A DNA stretch of 64,000 nucleotides from an uncultured Ignavibacteriales bacterium. Lineage in GTDB: Bacteria; Zixibacteria; MSB-5A5; GN15; FEB-12. The notes beneath the pieces were generated by a model. That model was given only the letters and a program-made list of their open reading frames with translations, was not told the origin of the DNA and did not search any database. Positions within the stretch are counted from its first letter, which is position 1. Every line of letters starts with the position of its first letter. A program made the position numbers and the translations under genes. Positions 7,930 through 13,821 of this stretch are shown here, piece after piece. The stretch is from positions 110,580 to 174,579 of the forward strand of contig CAYNIJ010000005.1 of NCBI GenBank assembly GCA_964397415.1, written 5' to 3'.

Positions 7930-9042
7930 CTAGCGCCAATACGGCGCTAGTCGGCGTATCCCCTCTTCAATCTGCTCTGGCTTTGCGGCGAAGCTGACCC
8001 GCACATATTTTCTTCCTCGTTCGCCGAACGCCAGACCAGGTATCACCACCACATCTACTTCATCGCGAATCCGCAGAGCAAAGCCAATAGGATCATCGAT
8101 TGCCGACATTGGCAACTTCATGAAATGGTAGAATGATCCATCCGGCGGAGTCTCCTCGACTCCGAAATGTTCGCGCTTGGCCCTGCGAACTGCCTCCCAT
8201 CGCGCATTCAGCTCCATGCGCGCCGCGCGGTGTATCTCCTCGCTGTGCTCCACAAGCGCCAGCGCCGCTTTCTGCGCCACGTACGATGGTGAAGTAGTTG
8301 CATAACTATGCACCGTCCGGGCCGGGGCCAGAGTATCAGGACTCCCGACCATCCAACCCACCCGCAACCCCGGCGCCCCCCACCCTTTGCTGACAGAACT
8401 GACTACCACGCCGTATGTTGAAACTTCCCGAAGACTTGGTGGCCGCTTCTCAAAATAGAGATCGCGATAGACCTCGTCAGAAATCAGCAATATCCCACGC
8501 TCATGACATGCCTCAGCGATTTGCCGTAGGTCATCCGCCGTGCACCCTGCTCCCGTAGGATTCGACGGATGATTCACTATCACCGCCTTGACGTTCGGAT
8601 TGCCGAGCCGCGACAATAATTCGCCCGCGTTCAATCTGAATCTATTCGCTTGATCAAGCGGATAGTAATCCGGCTCCGCCTGCGAGAACCGTACTATATT
8701 GGGGTAGGTGACAAATCCGGGGTCCGGCAACAACACCTTGTCCCCCGGTCCCACCCACGACTGGATAAGTGAGAACAGACCACCGATCGACCCCTGCGTG
8801 ATCACCACTTCATCGAAGGTAACCCCGTAATACTTCGCGACCGCGTGTCGAAGTTCAGGCAGTCCTGTCCCCGCACCGTATGGCGCACGCCCAGACCAAT
8901 CACGCAATACTTTCTGCGCCGGCTCCGGCAGATCCCAGGTCGGCTCGCCAATCCCCAACGGTATCGCGGTTGGTCGAGCCCCTTCCGCTATCTGACGGAT
9001 CAGGCTGATATCCAGCGACCCTATACGCGATGCCCGCTCCAT
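7930..9042 (-). CDS. Class I/II PLP-dependent aminotransferase (aromatic/aspartate type), last gene of the aro operon
   Basis: Aminotransferase motifs (NPSNPTG, SKGWGAPGLRVGW). Start placed at MERASRIG, 5 nt after the tyrA stop. Confidence 0.8.
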   Translation of the reverse strand: MERASRIGSLDISLIRQIAEGARPTAIPLGIGEPTWDLPEPAQKVLRDWSGRAPYGAGTGLPELRHAVAKYYGVTFDEVVITQGSIGGLFSLIQSWVGPGDKVLLPDPGFVTYPNIVRFSQAEPDYYPLDQANRFRLNAGELLSRLGNPNVKAVIVNHPSNPTGAGCTADDLRQIAEACHERGILLISDEVYRDLYFEKRPPSLREVSTYGVVVSSVSKGWGAPGLRVGWMVGSPDTLAPARTVHSYATTSPSYVAQKAALALVEHSEEIHRAARMELNARWEAVRRAKREHFGVEETPPDGSFYHFMKLPMSAIDDPIGFALRIRDEVDVVVIPGLAFGERGRKYVRVSFAAKPEQIEEGIRRLAPYWR

Positions 9043-9046
9043 CGGT

Positions 9047-9913
9047 CTACTTTTTCCCCCGCTTGCTCGCCTTGTGCGCCTGCTTGACATATTGCGCCAG
9101 AGCATCGGAGTCCGGCTTGTTGATCAGTTTGCGAAGTTTCGCGAGCTCCGATTCCATTTGAGAAATTGCCTTGGTCACTTCGGCCCGATTACTCTGCAAG
9201 AGATTCTTCGTGAGTTCAGGCGAGGACTTCGCAACCCGCGTCGCGCTCTTGAGGCTCCCTCCCGCCAGACGCCACAGCAGTTTGTCGCTCTGCCCGGTTT
9301 CAGCAGTCACCTGAACTAGCGCTGTCGCGATCGCATATGGCAAATGGCTGGTCTGCGCCAGCAATCGGTCATGCCGTTTTGCGCCGATCATCAGCGGCAC
9401 GCCGCCGAGGGACTGTATCATCTGTTTGACCAGTCGTACTTGCGAAGGTTTGGCGCTTGTCGCGGGAGTCATGGTGATGATCTTCTTCTCGAACAACCCC
9501 GCTGTCGCCGACTCTATTCCCTCTCCCTCCGTTCCCGCGATCGGGTGAAGGCTCACATACCCCGCGAGTGGCTTCAGTCGCTCCACCGCCTGAAGTATCT
9601 CGACTTTGGTACTCGCAACATCAACGCAAAGACTGCCAGCCGGAAGCATCTCAAGTACCGAGGGCAATAGCCGAAGAGTCACATCGATCGGTGTCGCCAA
9701 TATCACGATTTCCGCGGAGCTCAATCCTGCTCGAAGGTTCGCCACCGTTTGGTCGACCGCGCCTCGTTCCTGGGCGCGAGCCATAACCGCTTTGTGCGAA
9801 TCGAATCCGACAACTCGCGCCACAATTCGCCGTCCCACCAGATCCAGCCCTATCGAGCCACCGATCTGACCAAGACCGACCGTGAGCGCGGTCATCTCGC
9901 CAAGCTTTTTCAT
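9047..9913 (-). CDS. tyrA: Prephenate dehydrogenase
   Basis: Rossmann motif VGLGQIGGS and a prephenate dehydrogenase-like C-terminal half. ATGA overlap with the aroF stop. Confidence 0.8.
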
Positions 9914-10923
9914 ATCGTCCGTTTTACTGCCTGTGCCACATGCTCCAGATCATTCATTAGTTCGGCAAAATCCGCCGGATACATACTCTGAACACCGTCG
10001 GAAAGCGCGCGTTCCGGATCGGGATGCACTTCGATTATCAGTCCATCCGCTCCGGTCGCGACGGAGCCTTTTGAGACCGGCCCGACCAGTTCGCGCTTGC
10101 CTACCGCGTGACTCGGGTCGACGATCACCGGAAGATGACTCAACTGCTTGAGGATCGGTACCGCCGAGATATCCAGTGTGTTGCGTGTCCATTTCTCAAA
10201 ACTGCGGATACCTCGCTCGCAGAGCATCACGTTTGGATTCCCATTCGACAGAATATATTCCGCCGACATCAACAACTCCTCGATCGTCGCCATCAACCCG
10301 CGCTTCAATAGCACCGGTTTGTGGCTCTTGCCGCACTCTTCTAACAGCGAAAAGTTCTGCATATTCCGCGCCCCGATCTGAAGTATGTCCGCGTAGCTCG
10401 CGACCAGCGATACATCCTGAGGCGATACCACCTCGGTCACTATCGGCAGCCCGAACTGCTCACCAACTTCTTTGAGTATGATCAAGCCCGGTTCACCCAA
10501 CCCCTGGAAACTGTACGGCGACGTTCTCGGTTTGAATGCACCACCTCTCAGGATCTTCGCCCCCGCTTTCGCTACTGCGTCGGCCGAGGCCATCATCTGG
10601 TCGCGCGTTTCCACCGCGCATGGCCCGGCCATCACCACCACCTGTTTCCCCCCGATCTTCACATTGCCGGCCGTGATGACAGAATCTTCCGGCTTGAACT
10701 CCCGACTCGACAGTTTGAACGGCTTCAGGATCGGCACAACTGACTCAACCCCGATCAGCGTCTGAAAGACCGCCGGGTCAACTACCTTTCCGTTGCCGAC
10801 CACGCCGATGATCGTTTTTTTGTCGCCGCGTGAAAGATGCGGACGAAACCCCAACTCCTGTACTCGCTCCAGCACATGCTGGAGACGTTCCTCCGTGGCG
10901 TCCGAGCGCATCACAATGATCAT
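9910..10923 (-). CDS. aroF: 3-deoxy-7-phosphoheptulonate (DAHP) synthase, type I-beta, with N-terminal ferredoxin-like regulatory domain
   Basis: KDO8PS/DAHPS I-beta-like core ([28 protein letters not shown]). The N-terminal ~70 aa resembles the Thermotoga-type regulatory domain. Confidence 0.85.
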
Positions 10924-11294
10924 ACGGGATCTCCTTCGGTGAGGTCGGGGCGTAACTGCCTCGCCTCTCTCAGATATTGGTGTTTTATCTCTTGCGGCGA
11001 TCTGGCGGTATTGACGAGTAGAAGTACCCGCACCACCGATCGCATCGCGCCCGGAACATCGATCTCTTGTGCGCAGATGAGCGGCACGGTCGGCCAGTGG
11101 AGACCGCGTACCGCGTACGCCGGGAACTCGGCCGTCAGATCCGGTGTCGCCGTGAACATGATCCCCGCGATATCATCCGGCTCTAACTGGTTTTCCCGGA
11201 CGATCGCCACCAGCAACTCCCGCGTTGCCGAGGTTATCGCTTCTTTGTTGTTTGCGTCGACCGTCACGGCCCCGCGAATGCCACGCACTGCCAT
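10920..11294 (-). CDS. aroH: Chorismate mutase, AroH class
   Basis: MAVRGIRGA..., a typical AroH N-terminus, at about 120 aa. AAGGAGA RBS. ATGA overlap with aroF. Confidence 0.85.
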
Positions 11295-11327
11295 CGTTGG
11301 ATTCTCCTTGCGGAGGTTTTAATACTA

Positions 11328-11360
11328 TGAAAAAGGCCCGCTGCCATTTGGTAGCGGGCC
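11328..11360 (-). terminator. Attenuator terminator immediately upstream of aroH
   Basis: Minus-strand GGCCCGCU / AGCGGGCC stem (11360-11335) followed by UUUUU (11334-11330). It lies about 35 nt before the aroH start. Confidence 0.7.
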
Positions 11361-11383
11361 TGGATATCTTGCTGACCTTGCTG

Positions 11384-11494
11384 TCAGACTGACATACCAC
11401 CCACTACCGGGTAGAGAGAATAGTAGTAATAGCCCCAATATCGGGCGGCATCATCGGTGGAAAGAGAAGCAATGTAGGATGTCTGGACTACCAT
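11384..11494 (-). CDS. Tyr/Trp-rich leader peptide of the aro operon (36 aa): MVVQTSYIASLSTDDAARYWGYYYYSLYPVVGGMSV
   Basis: AGGAGA lies 9 nt before the ATG at 11494. The peptide has 7 Tyr and 1 Trp, including four consecutive Tyr codons at 11431-11420, and ends in TGA at 11386-11384. It is below the ORF-track size cutoff. Confidence 0.65.
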   Translation of the reverse strand: MVVQTSYIASLSTDDAARYWGYYYYSLYPVVGGMSV

Positions 11495-11518
11495 TGAGTA
11501 ATATCTCCTGGTGTTCTC

Positions 11519-11546
11519 AGTATACCCCAAAGTGCAATTTTGTCAA
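11519..11546 (-). promoter_or_regulatory. Sigma-70-type promoter of the aro leader and operon
   Basis: TTGACA (11546-11541), 16-nt spacer, TATACT (11524-11519) on the minus strand. Confidence 0.6.
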
Positions 11547-11602
11547 GATGGATTCTTTCAGTCGCCTATTGACCGCGGGATAAATGTACCGTGATTGAAC
11601 AG

Positions 11603-11629
11603 CGGGGCTCCCGCTCCACAGGAGCCCCG
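11603..11629 (-). terminator. Hairpin just downstream of the 5'-nucleotidase stop
   Basis: 9-bp GC stem CGGGGCTCC / GGAGCCCCG. The U-tract on the minus strand is poor. Confidence 0.4.
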
Positions 11630-11649
11630 GCCTTTAGATTGACTGCCTC

Positions 11650-13821
11650 CTACTGGAGCAGTAGCATCTTACGCGTCGCCACTGCCCCGTTTGTCTCAAG
11701 TCTATAGAAGTAGACGCCACTGGCAACCGGGTTGCCTGAGGCATCCATCGAATTCCAGGTCGCGGTGTGTATCCCTGCGGATAGATCCCCCTCGACCAGC
11801 GTTGCTACCCGTTCACCCAGTATGTTGTATACCACCAGGCTGACATGAGTCGGCTGTGGCAGGCTGAAAGAGATCGACGTGGTTGGATTGAATGGATTGG
11901 GATAATTCTGCTCCAGAACCAATTCGCTTGGCAAAGTCGCCACTTTCGCCGCTGGCGGCGCCTGCGGTGCGATCATCCCCTGAATATAGCCGGCCAGGTA
12001 GACCAGTCGTTCGGCCGCCATCGGATCAAGATACTTGGATGGCGTCCTTTCGACCTCCTGCTTGAAGATCTCCAGCATCTGCCAGGCCGCTTGCAACGCG
12101 CCGCGCTCTATCAGCTTCTGCGCTTTTAGCACGTGCAGATGCCATGGCGCGACATTGTAGGTCCGCTTCAGCAGCTTGGAATCGATATACTGGGTGATCG
12201 CCTGATCCAGCAGGAGCGCTGCGTCGGCCGGATCAGCCATCGGCGCCAGATCGAACACCCGCCCGCCGCGATATGCTACCACTGGCGTATGGTCGATCAT
12301 GTAGTCCTTCACGACCGTGTAGACCGGCAAATCAAGGAAGTTAAGATTACTGATAGAGAATCCCGGTATCTGGCTGACAAATCCAACCACCGCGTCCGAG
12401 GTCGACACCGTGTATGTTGCATACGGGTCTATCGGTACGCCGTTGATGCGAACCGATGTATAGTCGACACGCGAGCCGGGTGGATTCGCTTGATTGTACG
12501 CGTACATGATATTTGAACCATGCAGTATGAAATCCTCGGAGTACGGTAGATTGTAGACCGCGAACTCAAGCCCCGCCAGAATAGACATACCGTTCGTCTC
12601 GAACGTCACCAGCTTCAGCCCCAGCCCCGTGGTCTGGTCAAACCCGTATGGGACAGCCTGGAAGATATCCATCCCCCTGACCAGCCCTTTGTAGATCGTC
12701 TGACCGCAAAACCCCTGCGGCTGGAACGCGATATCCGTTCCAGTCACTATCCGGAACGCGTCCGCGATCATATTCCCCATCGGCGTATCCTGGAAGATCC
12801 CATCCGTTCTTGTCTTAGTGATATCAACCGCCGCCACTGCCAGGTTTTCGGAGTATACTGGTCCAAATCGGGGATCCGCCTCGATTCCCATAGCCAGCAT
12901 CTGGATCTGACCGGCAATAGTCGGTTCTTCCGGGACCGACTGATCTATCGGGACAGGATAATAGTCAAAGCCGACCAGGTCTCCGCTTTCGACAACCAGC
13001 GTTGTCCTGCCGACATGCCCCGCAAACTCTCCTGCCTGCACGATCCTGACTCCATTGACCTCAACAGCACCGGGCAGATAGGTGTGAGAATGTCCGCCGA
13101 CTATAACGTCTGCCCCTGAGACCATTTGCGCCAGAACGCAGTCAACTTCAAACCCCAGGTGACTAAGGATTATCACGACATCACAGTCATGCGCCGCAAG
13201 CGTATCGATCCACCTCTGCGCTTCTCCAATGGCCGGCAGCACCAGTACCGGCGATGGATTGGATATCTGGTTCGCGCTTTCGGTCAGCAACGCCACCACC
13301 CCGACCCGCGTGTTCCCGTAATCTTTGATCATGTACGGCTGAACAAAGTATCCCATGGTCGGCTCGCCACTGACATCCAGATTGGCGCAGAGCACCGGCA
13401 TGGCCGGGTCAGGCAACCCCGCTTGAATCAGCATATACTGCAGGGTCGATGGATAGAGATCAAATTCATGGTTCCCCAGCGCAACCGCATCATACCCGAT
13501 CGCTTTCATCAGCATCAACTGGGGAATGCTGAGATACTCCTGAAACATGAAATCCCCGACCGAATAGTCCCCGGCATCCAACACCAGAGTATTGGGCGAC
13601 TGCATCCGGGTCATCCCGATCAGCGTCGCGACTCGGGCAAAACCTCCCCATTGCCAGTTCCCCGAGGCATCCTTTGGCCCATACGGCAAGAGATGCGCAT
13701 GCGTGTCATTCGTGTGCAGAATGACGATCGAATCCGGCTGAGCAATCGCTACAGCGCAGCACATCAGTATCGCCGCCAGCACTGTTACTAACGTTTTCAC
13801 TGAAGCCTTCCCTTGCGGCAT
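11650..13821 (-). CDS. Secreted metallophosphatase/5'-nucleotidase with T9SS-type C-terminal sorting domain
   Basis: HTNDTHAH and GNHEFD motifs and a signal peptide. The C-terminal ~85 aa (LEQNYPNPFNPTT...GVYFYRL...KMLLLQ) is a typical Por/T9SS CTD. Confidence 0.85.
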   Translation of the reverse strand: MPQGKASVKTLVTVLAAILMCCAVAIAQPDSIVILHTNDTHAHLLPYGPKDASGNWQWGGFARVATLIGMTRMQSPNTLVLDAGDYSVGDFMFQEYLSIPQLMLMKAIGYDAVALGNHEFDLYPSTLQYMLIQAGLPDPAMPVLCANLDVSGEPTMGYFVQPYMIKDYGNTRVGVVALLTESANQISNPSPVLVLPAIGEAQRWIDTLAAHDCDVVIILSHLGFEVDCVLAQMVSGADVIVGGHSHTYLPGAVEVNGVRIVQAGEFAGHVGRTTLVVESGDLVGFDYYPVPIDQSVPEEPTIAGQIQMLAMGIEADPRFGPVYSENLAVAAVDITKTRTDGIFQDTPMGNMIADAFRIVTGTDIAFQPQGFCGQTIYKGLVRGMDIFQAVPYGFDQTTGLGLKLVTFETNGMSILAGLEFAVYNLPYSEDFILHGSNIMYAYNQANPPGSRVDYTSVRINGVPIDPYATYTVSTSDAVVGFVSQIPGFSISNLNFLDLPVYTVVKDYMIDHTPVVAYRGGRVFDLAPMADPADAALLLDQAITQYIDSKLLKRTYNVAPWHLHVLKAQKLIERGALQAAWQMLEIFKQEVERTPSKYLDPMAAERLVYLAGYIQGMIAPQAPPAAKVATLPSELVLEQNYPNPFNPTTSISFSLPQPTHVSLVVYNILGERVATLVEGDLSAGIHTATWNSMDASGNPVASGVYFYRLETNGAVATRKMLLLQ

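Follow-up and report, generated by a model that had tools for sequence, protein, structure and literature searches.

The 64,000-nucleotide stretch of contig CAYNIJ010000005.1 analyzed here (the window) carries on its minus strand a four-gene operon that begins with the chorismate mutase gene aroH and continues with a 3-deoxy-D-arabino-heptulosonate 7-phosphate (DAHP) synthase gene (aroF), the prephenate dehydrogenase gene tyrA and an aminotransferase gene. We conclude that the leader of this operon is very probably a ribosome-mediated leader-peptide transcription attenuator, which would read charged tRNA-Tyr through a run of tyrosine codons and so set read-through into all four genes. A Tyr-tuned attenuator had been proposed at this place from the letters of the window alone (the original prediction), and it is now supported by mutually exclusive folds of the leader RNA, by a model of ribosome positions, and by conservation in five clades of relatives. 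The sequence and structural features that mark this mechanistic class are found: a leader open reading frame (ORF) with a start signal, a cluster of cognate codons, a terminator, and an antiterminator that excludes it, with the geometry that links them seen in the model only. AroH homologues place the host in Candidatus Zixiibacteriota, within the Fibrobacteres-Chlorobi-Bacteroidetes (FCB) group, as had been guessed.

Anatomy of the leader

All leader coordinates are read on the minus strand (Table 1). The gap that runs from the stop of the upstream gene (11650), a 5'-nucleotidase with a type IX secretion system tail, to the ATG of aroH (11294) measures 355 nucleotides (nt). Its promoter matches the consensus at 11 of 12 positions and ranks first among 13 promoter-like sites in a 7-kb scan (shuffled sequence: 4.0); transcription is predicted to start near 11512, about 18 nt 5' of a 36-codon ORF. 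This leader ORF contains seven Tyr codons and one Trp codon and ends in a UGA stop at 11386-11384. Four Tyr codons stand in a row, the other aromatic codons being Tyr19 (11440-11438), Trp20 (11437-11435), and Tyr28 (11413-11411). Four consecutive TAY codons occur once in the window, counting both strands, against 0.01 expected by chance. Public gene callers predict the same ORF in 15 or more public contigs, where it bears no assigned name. The gap, the promoter, the spacing from AGGAGA to ATG, the ORF with its composition, and UAU UAC UAC UAU at 11431-11420 all lie where the original prediction had put them.

The 3' end of the ORF contains an antiterminator strand, which ends 10 nt before the stop codon, and a GC-rich hairpin followed by UUUUU stands between the ORF and aroH. 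The predicted hairpin and U-run are present at 11360-11335 and 11334-11330, with one correction: the 35 nt given as the distance to the aroH ribosome-binding site is the distance from the end of the U-run to the aroH ATG, the ribosome-binding site itself being only about 21 nt away. A simple scan for terminators, whose rule is an unbroken stem with a loop of 3-8 nt, did not list this hairpin because here the uninterrupted 8-bp stem is capped by a 10-nt loop with two further pairs inside it. When the whole window was scanned for other leaders with amino-acid runs and terminators, the result, besides overlapping frames of the Tyr leader, was seven other ORFs, none of them leader-like.

Table 1. 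Features of the aroH leader and its operon in the window, with the leader peptides of relatives
Feature	Position	Strand	Details
Sigma-70-type promoter	11519..11546	-	TTGACA 11546-11541, 16-nt spacer, TATACT 11524-11519
Shine-Dalgarno AGGAGA	11504..11509	-	9 nt to leader ATG 11494
Leader ORF, 36 codons + UGA	11384..11494	-	MVVQTSYIASLSTDDAARYWGYYYYSLYPVVGGMSV
Segment 1 (anti-antiterminator strand)	11434..11455	-	GAUGAUGCCGCCCGAUAUUGGG; directly 5' of Tyr run; includes small hairpin CCCGAUAUUGGG
Regulatory codons, Tyr22-Tyr25	11420..11431	-	UAU UAC UAC UAU; Tyr run of leader ORF
Segment 2	11391..11411	-	CCCGGUAGUGGGUGGUAUGUC; within 3' end of leader ORF
Antiterminator strand of segment 2	11408-11397	-	GGUAGUGGGUGG; core GGUAGUGGGU 11408-11399
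Stretch of 2:3 pairing			GGUAGUGGG; change to GGUAGUCCC would break 2:3
Segment 3	11350..11363	-	CCAGGCCCGCUACC; common to antiterminator (2:3) and terminator 5' arm
Intrinsic terminator	11330..11361	-	Stem GGCCCGCU/AGCGGGCC 11360-11335, inner CC/GG step, AAAU loop, UUUUU 11334-11330
Segment 4 (terminator 3' side)	11345-11334	-	
aroH, monofunctional AroH-class chorismate mutase, first structural gene	10920..11294	-	Pfam CM_1 1.4e-45; TIGR01796 equivalog 143.8 bits vs cutoff 82
DAHP synthase, type I-beta, N-terminal ferredoxin-like domain	9910..10923	-	Pfam DAHP_synth_1 + DAHP_snth_FXD; NF006421 503 bits vs cutoff 335
tyrA, prephenate/arogenate dehydrogenase	9047..9913	-	Pfam PDH_N + PDH_C
Class I/II aminotransferase, last gene of operon	7930..9042	-	Pfam Aminotran_1_2 1.2e-55
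Leader peptide of L004, L165, L172			MVVQISQINRVATADIERYGYYYYYALYPVVGGMTV
Leader peptide of L166			MLNTSLTASRYAAASARYYAYSYYYYADSHGSGRRLSEPE
Leader peptide of L169			...ARYGWYYYYTPRYIVGGR
Leader peptide of L170			...RYARYGYYYWFTARRVVGSRHPV

Exclusive folds and ribosome position

The minimum free energy (MFE) structure of the 218-nt leader combines a 1:2 helix with the 3:4 terminator (-67.9 kcal/mol, z = -2.75, with none of 200 shuffles equally stable). In the 1:2 helix GAUGAUGCCGCCCGAUAUUGGG (11455-11434) pairs with CCCGGUAGUGGGUGGUAUGUC (11411-11391), and the Tyr run lies in the loop. This helix takes the place of the one first proposed, between the Tyr-codon stretch CUAUUACUAC and GUAGUGGG, which amounts to about five pairs and occurs in no predicted structure of the window leader. 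The proposed antiterminator, in which GGUAGUGGGU (11408-11399) pairs with GCCCGCUACC (11359-11350), is present and is lengthened by GG/CC; segment 2 is the best duplex partner of the terminator 5' arm, forming the strongest duplex with segment 3 among all 14-nt windows of the leader (-18.7 kcal/mol). As separate domains 1:2, 2:3, and 3:4 reach -25.3, -29.2, and -20.8 kcal/mol, the terminator hairpin ranging from -19.6 to -20.8 kcal/mol, and the whole leader reaches -56.9 kcal/mol with 1:2 and 3:4 against -49.5 kcal/mol with 2:3 forced. In RNA that ends before segment 4 the 2:3 antiterminator forms spontaneously. The folding check attached to the original prediction thus yields the two exclusive structures it called for, with 2:3 forming in the absence of segment 4; its other half, constrained folding of the full-length RNA, left the terminator in place under every constraint.

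We modeled the nascent RNA by folding only the part 3' of the ribosome, up to segment 4. For the window leader the probability (P) that segment 3 is sequestered is 0.88 with the ribosomal A-site on Tyr19, Trp20, or any of Tyr22-Tyr25; it drops to 0.68, 0.37, and 0.10 at one, two, and three codons past Tyr25, the last of these being Tyr28, and is 0.16 with the A-site on the stop codon. Across all seven distinct leaders, P is 0.88-1.0 on the Tyr codons of the run and 0.01-0.45 at the stop. In this model the positions of the Tyr run are the last at which stalling keeps the antiterminator strand clear of the ribosome.

These results suggest the following mechanism. Transcription would start about 18 nt before the leader ORF. 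When Tyr-tRNA is plentiful, the ribosome would reach the UGA and cover about half of the antiterminator strand in segment 2, the remainder being too short to hold segment 3; if the leader is untranslated, segment 1 would hold segment 2 instead. In either case the 3:4 GC hairpin and its U-run would form and RNA polymerase would terminate at about 11330. When Tyr-tRNA is scarce, the ribosome would stall on Tyr22-Tyr25, covering segment 1 and stopping just short of GGUAGUGGGUGG (11408-11397), which could then pair with GCCCGCUACC before segment 4 exists, so that the terminator would be blocked and the operon transcribed.

Conservation in relatives

We obtained the loci of relatives by exact-protein look-ups, which gave five sequence clades with AroH 75-97% identical; a scan of metagenome contigs with the AroH alignment gave a best match of 63% identity and so no close relatives. 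All five clades share one layout: promoter, short Tyr-run ORF, antiterminator strand in the 3' end of the ORF, terminator, and aroH. The promoter is kept at the same spacing in the five clades and in locus L081, with a -35 box extended to CTTGACAAAAT and a -10 box of the form TAnAnT. The 36-codon frame is kept in the clade of L004, L165, and L172, and the ORFs of L166, L169, and L170 have 31-40 codons; in every clade there is an in-frame ATG, and the stop stands at a fixed distance from segment 2. The Tyr runs read YYYY(Y), YSYYYY, or YYYWF depending on the clade (WYYYY in L169, YYYWF in L170), and among L004, L165, and L172 the run differs by UAU/UAC swaps only. A GUGGG-containing strand lies near the 3' end of each ORF, and a GC hairpin with a U-run lies 35-55 nt before aroH in all clades.

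Helix statistics were drawn from a nine-sequence alignment (A2) of the five clades. The GUGGG core of segment 2 is invariant in all nine sequences. In the 2:3 antiterminator pairing holds in 93.5% of cells (slid controls: 23-50%), and three pairs have changed on both sides; in the 3:4 terminator 98% are paired, against 36-65% in controls, with four compensatory pairs, and none of 500 shuffles reaches its score. The check on relatives that the original prediction had called for therefore came out in its favor, with the small ORF and its Tyr run kept in all five clades and compensatory changes in both 2:3 and 3:4. RNAalifold independently recovers three structures, namely the terminator, a hairpin of segment 2 with itself, and a small one immediately 5' of the Tyr run. 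We rejected a positionally conserved 1:2 helix, as each clade sequesters segment 2 differently.

At the finest scale, four strain haplotypes that encode an identical peptide are free of substitutions across the 111-nt ORF and all stems. Their differences fall elsewhere: five to seven in the upstream 66 nt, some in two hairpin loops, and many in the spacer that follows the terminator. This pattern points to purifying selection on the leader. The gene upstream is the 5'-nucleotidase in the window, a DinB_2 protein gene in L165, and a divergent gene in L166; because this neighbor differs between relatives while the leader stays, the comparison indicates that the element travels with aroH and not with the upstream gene. 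In a further locus, L182 (Logan contig of SRR13723393), the leader region is identical to that of the window over the roughly 270 nt compared, and SRR13723393 probably holds the same strain.

Several observations weigh against an attenuator of this kind. The Shine-Dalgarno sequence before the leader ATG is clear in the clade of the window and weak or absent in some others. The covariation comes from nine sequences in five clades and has modest statistical power; the position of segment 1 is not conserved, L166, L169, and L170 pairing segment 2 with the 5' end of the ORF; and L166 and L170 switch poorly under full-length constraints. Tyr28 sits where a stall would block the antiterminator. The sequestration measure is weakly specific: when the stretch from the Tyr run to segment 3 was shuffled, 56 of 500 shuffles reached P >= 0.8, and as these 11% also sequester segment 3 we do not use the measure as statistical proof. 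Finally, full-length RNA at equilibrium keeps the terminator under all ribosome-footprint constraints that we applied. We therefore dropped full-length equilibrium folding with the footprint held single-stranded as a test, the terminator being in the MFE structure under all constraints and the states indistinguishable; since equilibrium favors the terminator whatever the constraint, the switch would have to be kinetic and co-transcriptional. Classic attenuators are likewise understood as kinetic. From the elements, their alternative folds and energies, conservation, and covariation that we observe, we infer that the ORF is translated, that stalling and termination occur, and that the switch responds to tyrosine.

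The same RNA switch could instead be run by a trans-acting factor, such as an RNA-binding protein like TRAP or PyrR, a T-box-style uncharged tRNA, or a small molecule, with no role for translation of the ORF and with the Tyr codons incidental or a binding motif. It is RNA structures, and not translation, that are seen directly; some relatives have no obvious Shine-Dalgarno sequence; and the hairpin 5' of the Tyr run and the CGA-UAY sequence are conserved as nucleotides, so that they could form a binding site. Against such a factor, the run varies synonymously (UAU/UAC) but always reads as Tyr, and clades differ in how many Tyr codons it has and in how these are interrupted (YYYY, YYYYY, YSYYYY, YYYWF), which fits selection on codon meaning and not on an RNA motif. 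The ATG frame and the distance from stop to segment 2 are kept in all clades, and in the model the Tyr run falls exactly at the last ribosome position that frees segment 2. No gene for an RNA-binding regulator was seen among the genes adjoining the operon.

Database comparison bears on the same alternative. With an Rfam library of 4227 families, gathering thresholds gave nothing but tRNA across the window and no family in 20 related loci, and a search of 10800-12000 (1.2 kb around the leader) on both strands matched neither the T-box covariance model nor riboswitch families even at E <= 10. The only matches on the leader strand of the element are weak and below gathering, and owe most of their score to the terminator (Trp_leader RF00513 19.3 vs 41 bits, Leu_leader RF00512 18.7 vs 50, Thr_leader RF00506 15.2 vs 55), and reflect shared terminator architecture, not membership. 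We consider a factor-operated switch highly unlikely.

Aromatic leaders ahead of aroH in other lineages

We surveyed 154 non-identical regions upstream of aroH from genomes and metagenomes. A short ORF with at least five aromatic residues out of six was found in 26 of the 154 in the forward direction, in none of the 154 reverse complements, and in 4 of 1540 shuffles; for Tyr alone (at least four of six) the counts were 17 forward and 0 reverse. Tyr/Phe-rich leaders before aroH occur in Anaerolineae, Chloroflexia, Chloroflexaceae, and Herpetosiphonaceae of the Chloroflexota, in Atribacteria of the Atribacterota, and in further metagenome contigs, and most are followed by a terminator-like hairpin and have the same stall/stop behavior.

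This enrichment upstream of aroH, specific for aromatic residues, speaks against another alternative, that the ORF arose by chance or encodes a functional Tyr-rich micro-protein, and that the hairpin is a constitutive or leaky terminator or an insulator, set between the 5'-nucleotidase gene and the aro operon, with no part in amino-acid sensing. In its favor are the calling of the 36-residue ORF as a protein in public contigs and a C-terminal PVVGGM kept between two clades. The conserved C-terminus is, though, the antiterminator strand, and it changes together with segment 3 (GGCAGUGGG/CCCGCUGUC in L166, AUAGUGGGC/GCCCACUAU in L169), so that the constraint acts at the RNA level; between clades the peptide is not conserved beyond its Tyr run and one Arg-Tyr pair. 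As for an insulator, the near-consensus promoter sits between the upstream gene and the terminator, whose target is therefore the leader transcript rather than the upstream gene, and it is with aroH that the leader stays as upstream neighbors change. We regard a micro-protein, a chance ORF, or an insulator as extremely unlikely explanations.

What the attenuator senses is a separate matter. In other phyla all eight leaders of pheA-carrying operons contain Phe codons, as in Anaerolineae, where leaders such as RAYYYYFGFAS precede aroH-pheA-aroF-tyrA; the Zixibacteria operons have tyrA without pheA and leaders that are almost pure Tyr. To judge from these sequences, leader codon content fits operon content.

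It is nevertheless conceivable that the attenuator senses aromatic amino acids in general, Tyr and Trp and perhaps Phe, which would match its control over DAHP synthase, the enzyme that opens the common pathway. Trp20 precedes the run by two codons, and in the model a stall there sequesters segment 3 as well as a stall on the run does; Trp or Phe stands in or beside the run in L169 and L170, and relatives in other phyla mix Tyr, Phe, and Trp. Yet seven of the eight aromatic codons in the window leader are Tyr, Trp and Phe are absent from the regulatory stretch in the L004/L165/L172 and L166 clades, and past chorismate mutase the operon encodes Tyr-branch enzymes only. There is also precedent that codon content need not equal response: the Corynebacterium glutamicum leader aroR has a Phe-Tyr-Phe triplet and, as summarized in PMC11802643, responds to Phe and not to Tyr. 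We find general aromatic sensing unlikely, though it is possible as a refinement, including Trp20, of the tyrosine-reading attenuator proposed here.

With somewhat more confidence than doubt, we propose that this is the first tyrosine-specific leader-peptide attenuator and at the same time a member of a broad, undescribed set of aromatic leaders before aroH-led operons (Zixibacteria, Anaerolineae and Chloroflexia of the Chloroflexota, Atribacterota, and other lineages), in which the codon mix would track operon content, near-pure Tyr with tyrA only and Tyr with Phe where pheA is present.

Relation to known systems

The mechanism itself is textbook. Like E. coli trpL before trp and other enterobacterial leaders, the window element has a short ORF with a run of end-product codons, 1:2, 2:3, and 3:4 hairpins, a stop codon positioned for an unstalled ribosome to block segment 2, and a terminator before the first structural gene. 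It differs from these in having Tyr and not Trp, Leu, or Thr codons, in its Tyr run lying in the 1:2 loop and not within segment 1, and in its host, which belongs to Zixibacteria (FCB) and not to Proteobacteria. In the searchable literature, leader-peptide attenuation covers Trp, Phe, His, Leu, Thr, Ile/Val, and Cys, and the control described for tyrosine genes is by protein repressors or T-boxes. The repressor of E. coli aroF-tyrA is TyrR. Leader peptides do not control that operon, which is under protein repressors (PMC11802643), and a survey of Actinobacteria reports no RNA element for tyrosine genes, giving T-boxes as the RNA-level control known for tyrosine (PMC1262725). The Tyr T-boxes of Firmicutes also sense tRNA-Tyr charging and work a terminator/antiterminator switch on aromatic or tyrosine genes (PMC1262725), but they bind uncharged tRNA directly and independently of translation, where the window has a Tyr-run ORF instead.

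Aromatic leaders have closer counterparts. E. coli pheL-pheA is likewise an aromatic leader-peptide attenuator on a gene that contains a chorismate mutase (PMC3082878, PMC11802643); it has a Phe run, its enzyme is a bifunctional AroQ-type chorismate mutase-prephenate dehydratase, and it belongs to Gammaproteobacteria. C. glutamicum aroR, before aroF (Neshat et al., 2014, via PMC11802643), shares the aromatic leader, the DAHP synthase operon, and ribosome-mediated attenuation; its aromatic codons are the Phe-Tyr-Phe triplet only, it is reported to respond to Phe limitation and not to Tyr, and its operon, in an actinobacterium, has neither a leading aroH-type mutase nor tyrA. The predicted Acholeplasma upstream ORF uORFC-13-1, also before aroF (Brewer et al., 2021; PMC8632094), has promoter boxes and an adjacent terminator and was proposed to sense aromatics by translation speed, but it carries Phe codons (U-rich) and is confined to Acholeplasma and environmental sequences (PMC8632094). 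We take aroR and uORFC-13-1 to be analogues and not relatives of the window leader, a separation based on the papers' descriptions and not on sequences.

Because aromatic leaders before DAHP synthase genes had thus been published, what is new, as far as can be checked, is the specificity for Tyr, the phyla that host the leader, and how widely aroH-linked aromatic leaders appear to occur. Vitreschak et al. 2004 is said to mention candidate attenuators in Bacteroidetes/Chlorobi. The literature search, whose scope did not extend to the attenuator survey of Lopatovskaya et al. 2010, returned no Tyr-run leader and no leader in Chloroflexi or Zixibacteria. The novelty first claimed for the window thus holds for the Tyr run and must be narrowed in the other respects, given the related Tyr/Phe leaders in Chloroflexota and Atribacterota and the published aroR and uORFC-13-1. 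A 2010 account gave Proteobacteria and Actinobacteria as the only groups with known leader peptides, apart from a newly found case in Firmicutes (PMC2965389).

If the attenuator is real, a conserved Tyr-run leader would fill the missing aromatic specificity of leader-peptide attenuation and extend its range beyond those three phyla. Zixibacteria, Chloroflexota, and Atribacterota would then use coupled transcription and translation as a sensor, which implies close coupling of RNA polymerase and ribosome in them. The recurrent 36-residue hypothetical ORF could be relabelled as a regulatory leader, and the leader would mark the aroH-aroF-tyrA-aminotransferase cluster as a tyrosine-responsive unit, an aid in predicting auxotrophy and cross-feeding from metagenome-assembled genomes. 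It would also be a compact and probably portable tyrosine-responsive genetic part.

The operon and nearby hairpins

The identities first assigned to the downstream genes are borne out by matches to Pfam, TIGR01796, and NF006421 (Table 1). NCBIfam gave the aminotransferase generic aminotransferase matches only, all under cutoff. Its start is probably near 9042, the longest ORF reaching 9105; the gene called for its counterpart in L161 encodes 370 residues and starts 5 nt past tyrA.

Further hairpins lie in or near the leader. Directly after the stop codon of the 5'-nucleotidase gene, at 11600-11632 on the minus strand, a 9-bp GC hairpin (CGGGGCUCC...GGAGCCCCG) without a U-tract is probably a terminator or stabilizer of that gene, separating it from the promoter of the aro leader. 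At 11303-11316 on the same strand, the aroH Shine-Dalgarno sequence AAGGAGA (11309-11303) pairs with an upstream CUCC in a hairpin CUCC-GCAA-GGAG, which the closest strains, L161 and L171, keep and the L004 clade lacks; translational masking may be an added effect of it, or it may be due to chance. The small hairpin directly 5' of the Tyr run (11434-11447, minus strand; A2 columns 50-61) is CCCGAUAUUGGG in the window and CCCGAUACGGG in L169 and L170, with the invariant CGA-UAY (Arg-Tyr) in all clades and compensatory change in two of its three pairs. We speculate that RNA polymerase may pause at this hairpin, which would keep transcription in step with translation.

Sequence families among the surveyed leaders

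The leaders of L011, L021, L023, L075, L085, L112, L133, L158, L160, and others consist of a Tyr/Phe-rich ORF and a terminator 80-330 nt upstream of aroH (locus position ~3001). Several leaders of the L011 type, in Chloroflexota and metagenome contigs, contain an in-frame GPSPHAR whose codons, CCCGCACGC, complement the terminator 5' arm (GCGUGG...); these appear to be a distinct sequence family with the same logic. Another group (L024, L117, L140, L143, L150), one Atribacteria genome and otherwise similar metagenome contigs, has leaders of the form ...FNFYYYYYY(S/F)TDVYAL(T/V)S; these have as many as six consecutive Tyr codons and lie 170-370 nt upstream of aroH, the ORF ending 170-280 nt before it. 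The stall/stop model showed no switch on the Atribacteria-type leaders L024, L140, L143, and L150, and their architecture may differ. In L065, L076, and L122, the first two from Chloroflexaceae, conserved leaders of the form MAQR(V/M)HSF(Y/S)R(Y/F)FYYFTGPH.AW.LRTV lie 100-190 nt upstream of aroH; their sole terminator-like site is inside the leader ORF, with none after it, and they may regulate translation or use another mechanism.

An aroH that lacks such a leader often lies within a trp operon, after trpA or trpC. Thus in L020 and L054 (other Zixibacteria), L016 (Ignavibacteria), and L002 (Planctomycetota) aroH comes immediately after trpA (Trp_syntA) or trpC (IGPS), with no separate leader. 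This placement recalls the aromatic supraoperon of B. subtilis.

Two further leaders carry other aromatic codons. In metagenome contig Ga0272449_1002752 (L081:220-478, plus strand) the leader MIVAYYAWWTGFYFAGLRRPGLSPRAGQPG has YY, WW, and FYF, and so all three aromatics; the CTTGACAAAAT promoter stands in front of it, and a strong terminator and aroH-pheA-aroF-tyrA follow. In the Zixibacteria contig of L166 (ENA ERZ27267809; L166:3000-3245, plus strand), between the aminotransferase gene and trpE (Chorismate_bind), a promoter-like CTTGACAAAT precedes a short ORF, MMCFTTAPRNQASARKTTTQQYWRWYPGIRLSDGGSL, with UGG CGA UGG (W-R-W) and then a strong terminator, GGCCCGCUAUCAGGCAACUGAUAGCGGGUUUUUUUU. 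To judge by its sequence this element looks like a Trp leader attenuator, in which case the lineage would use the mechanism more than once.

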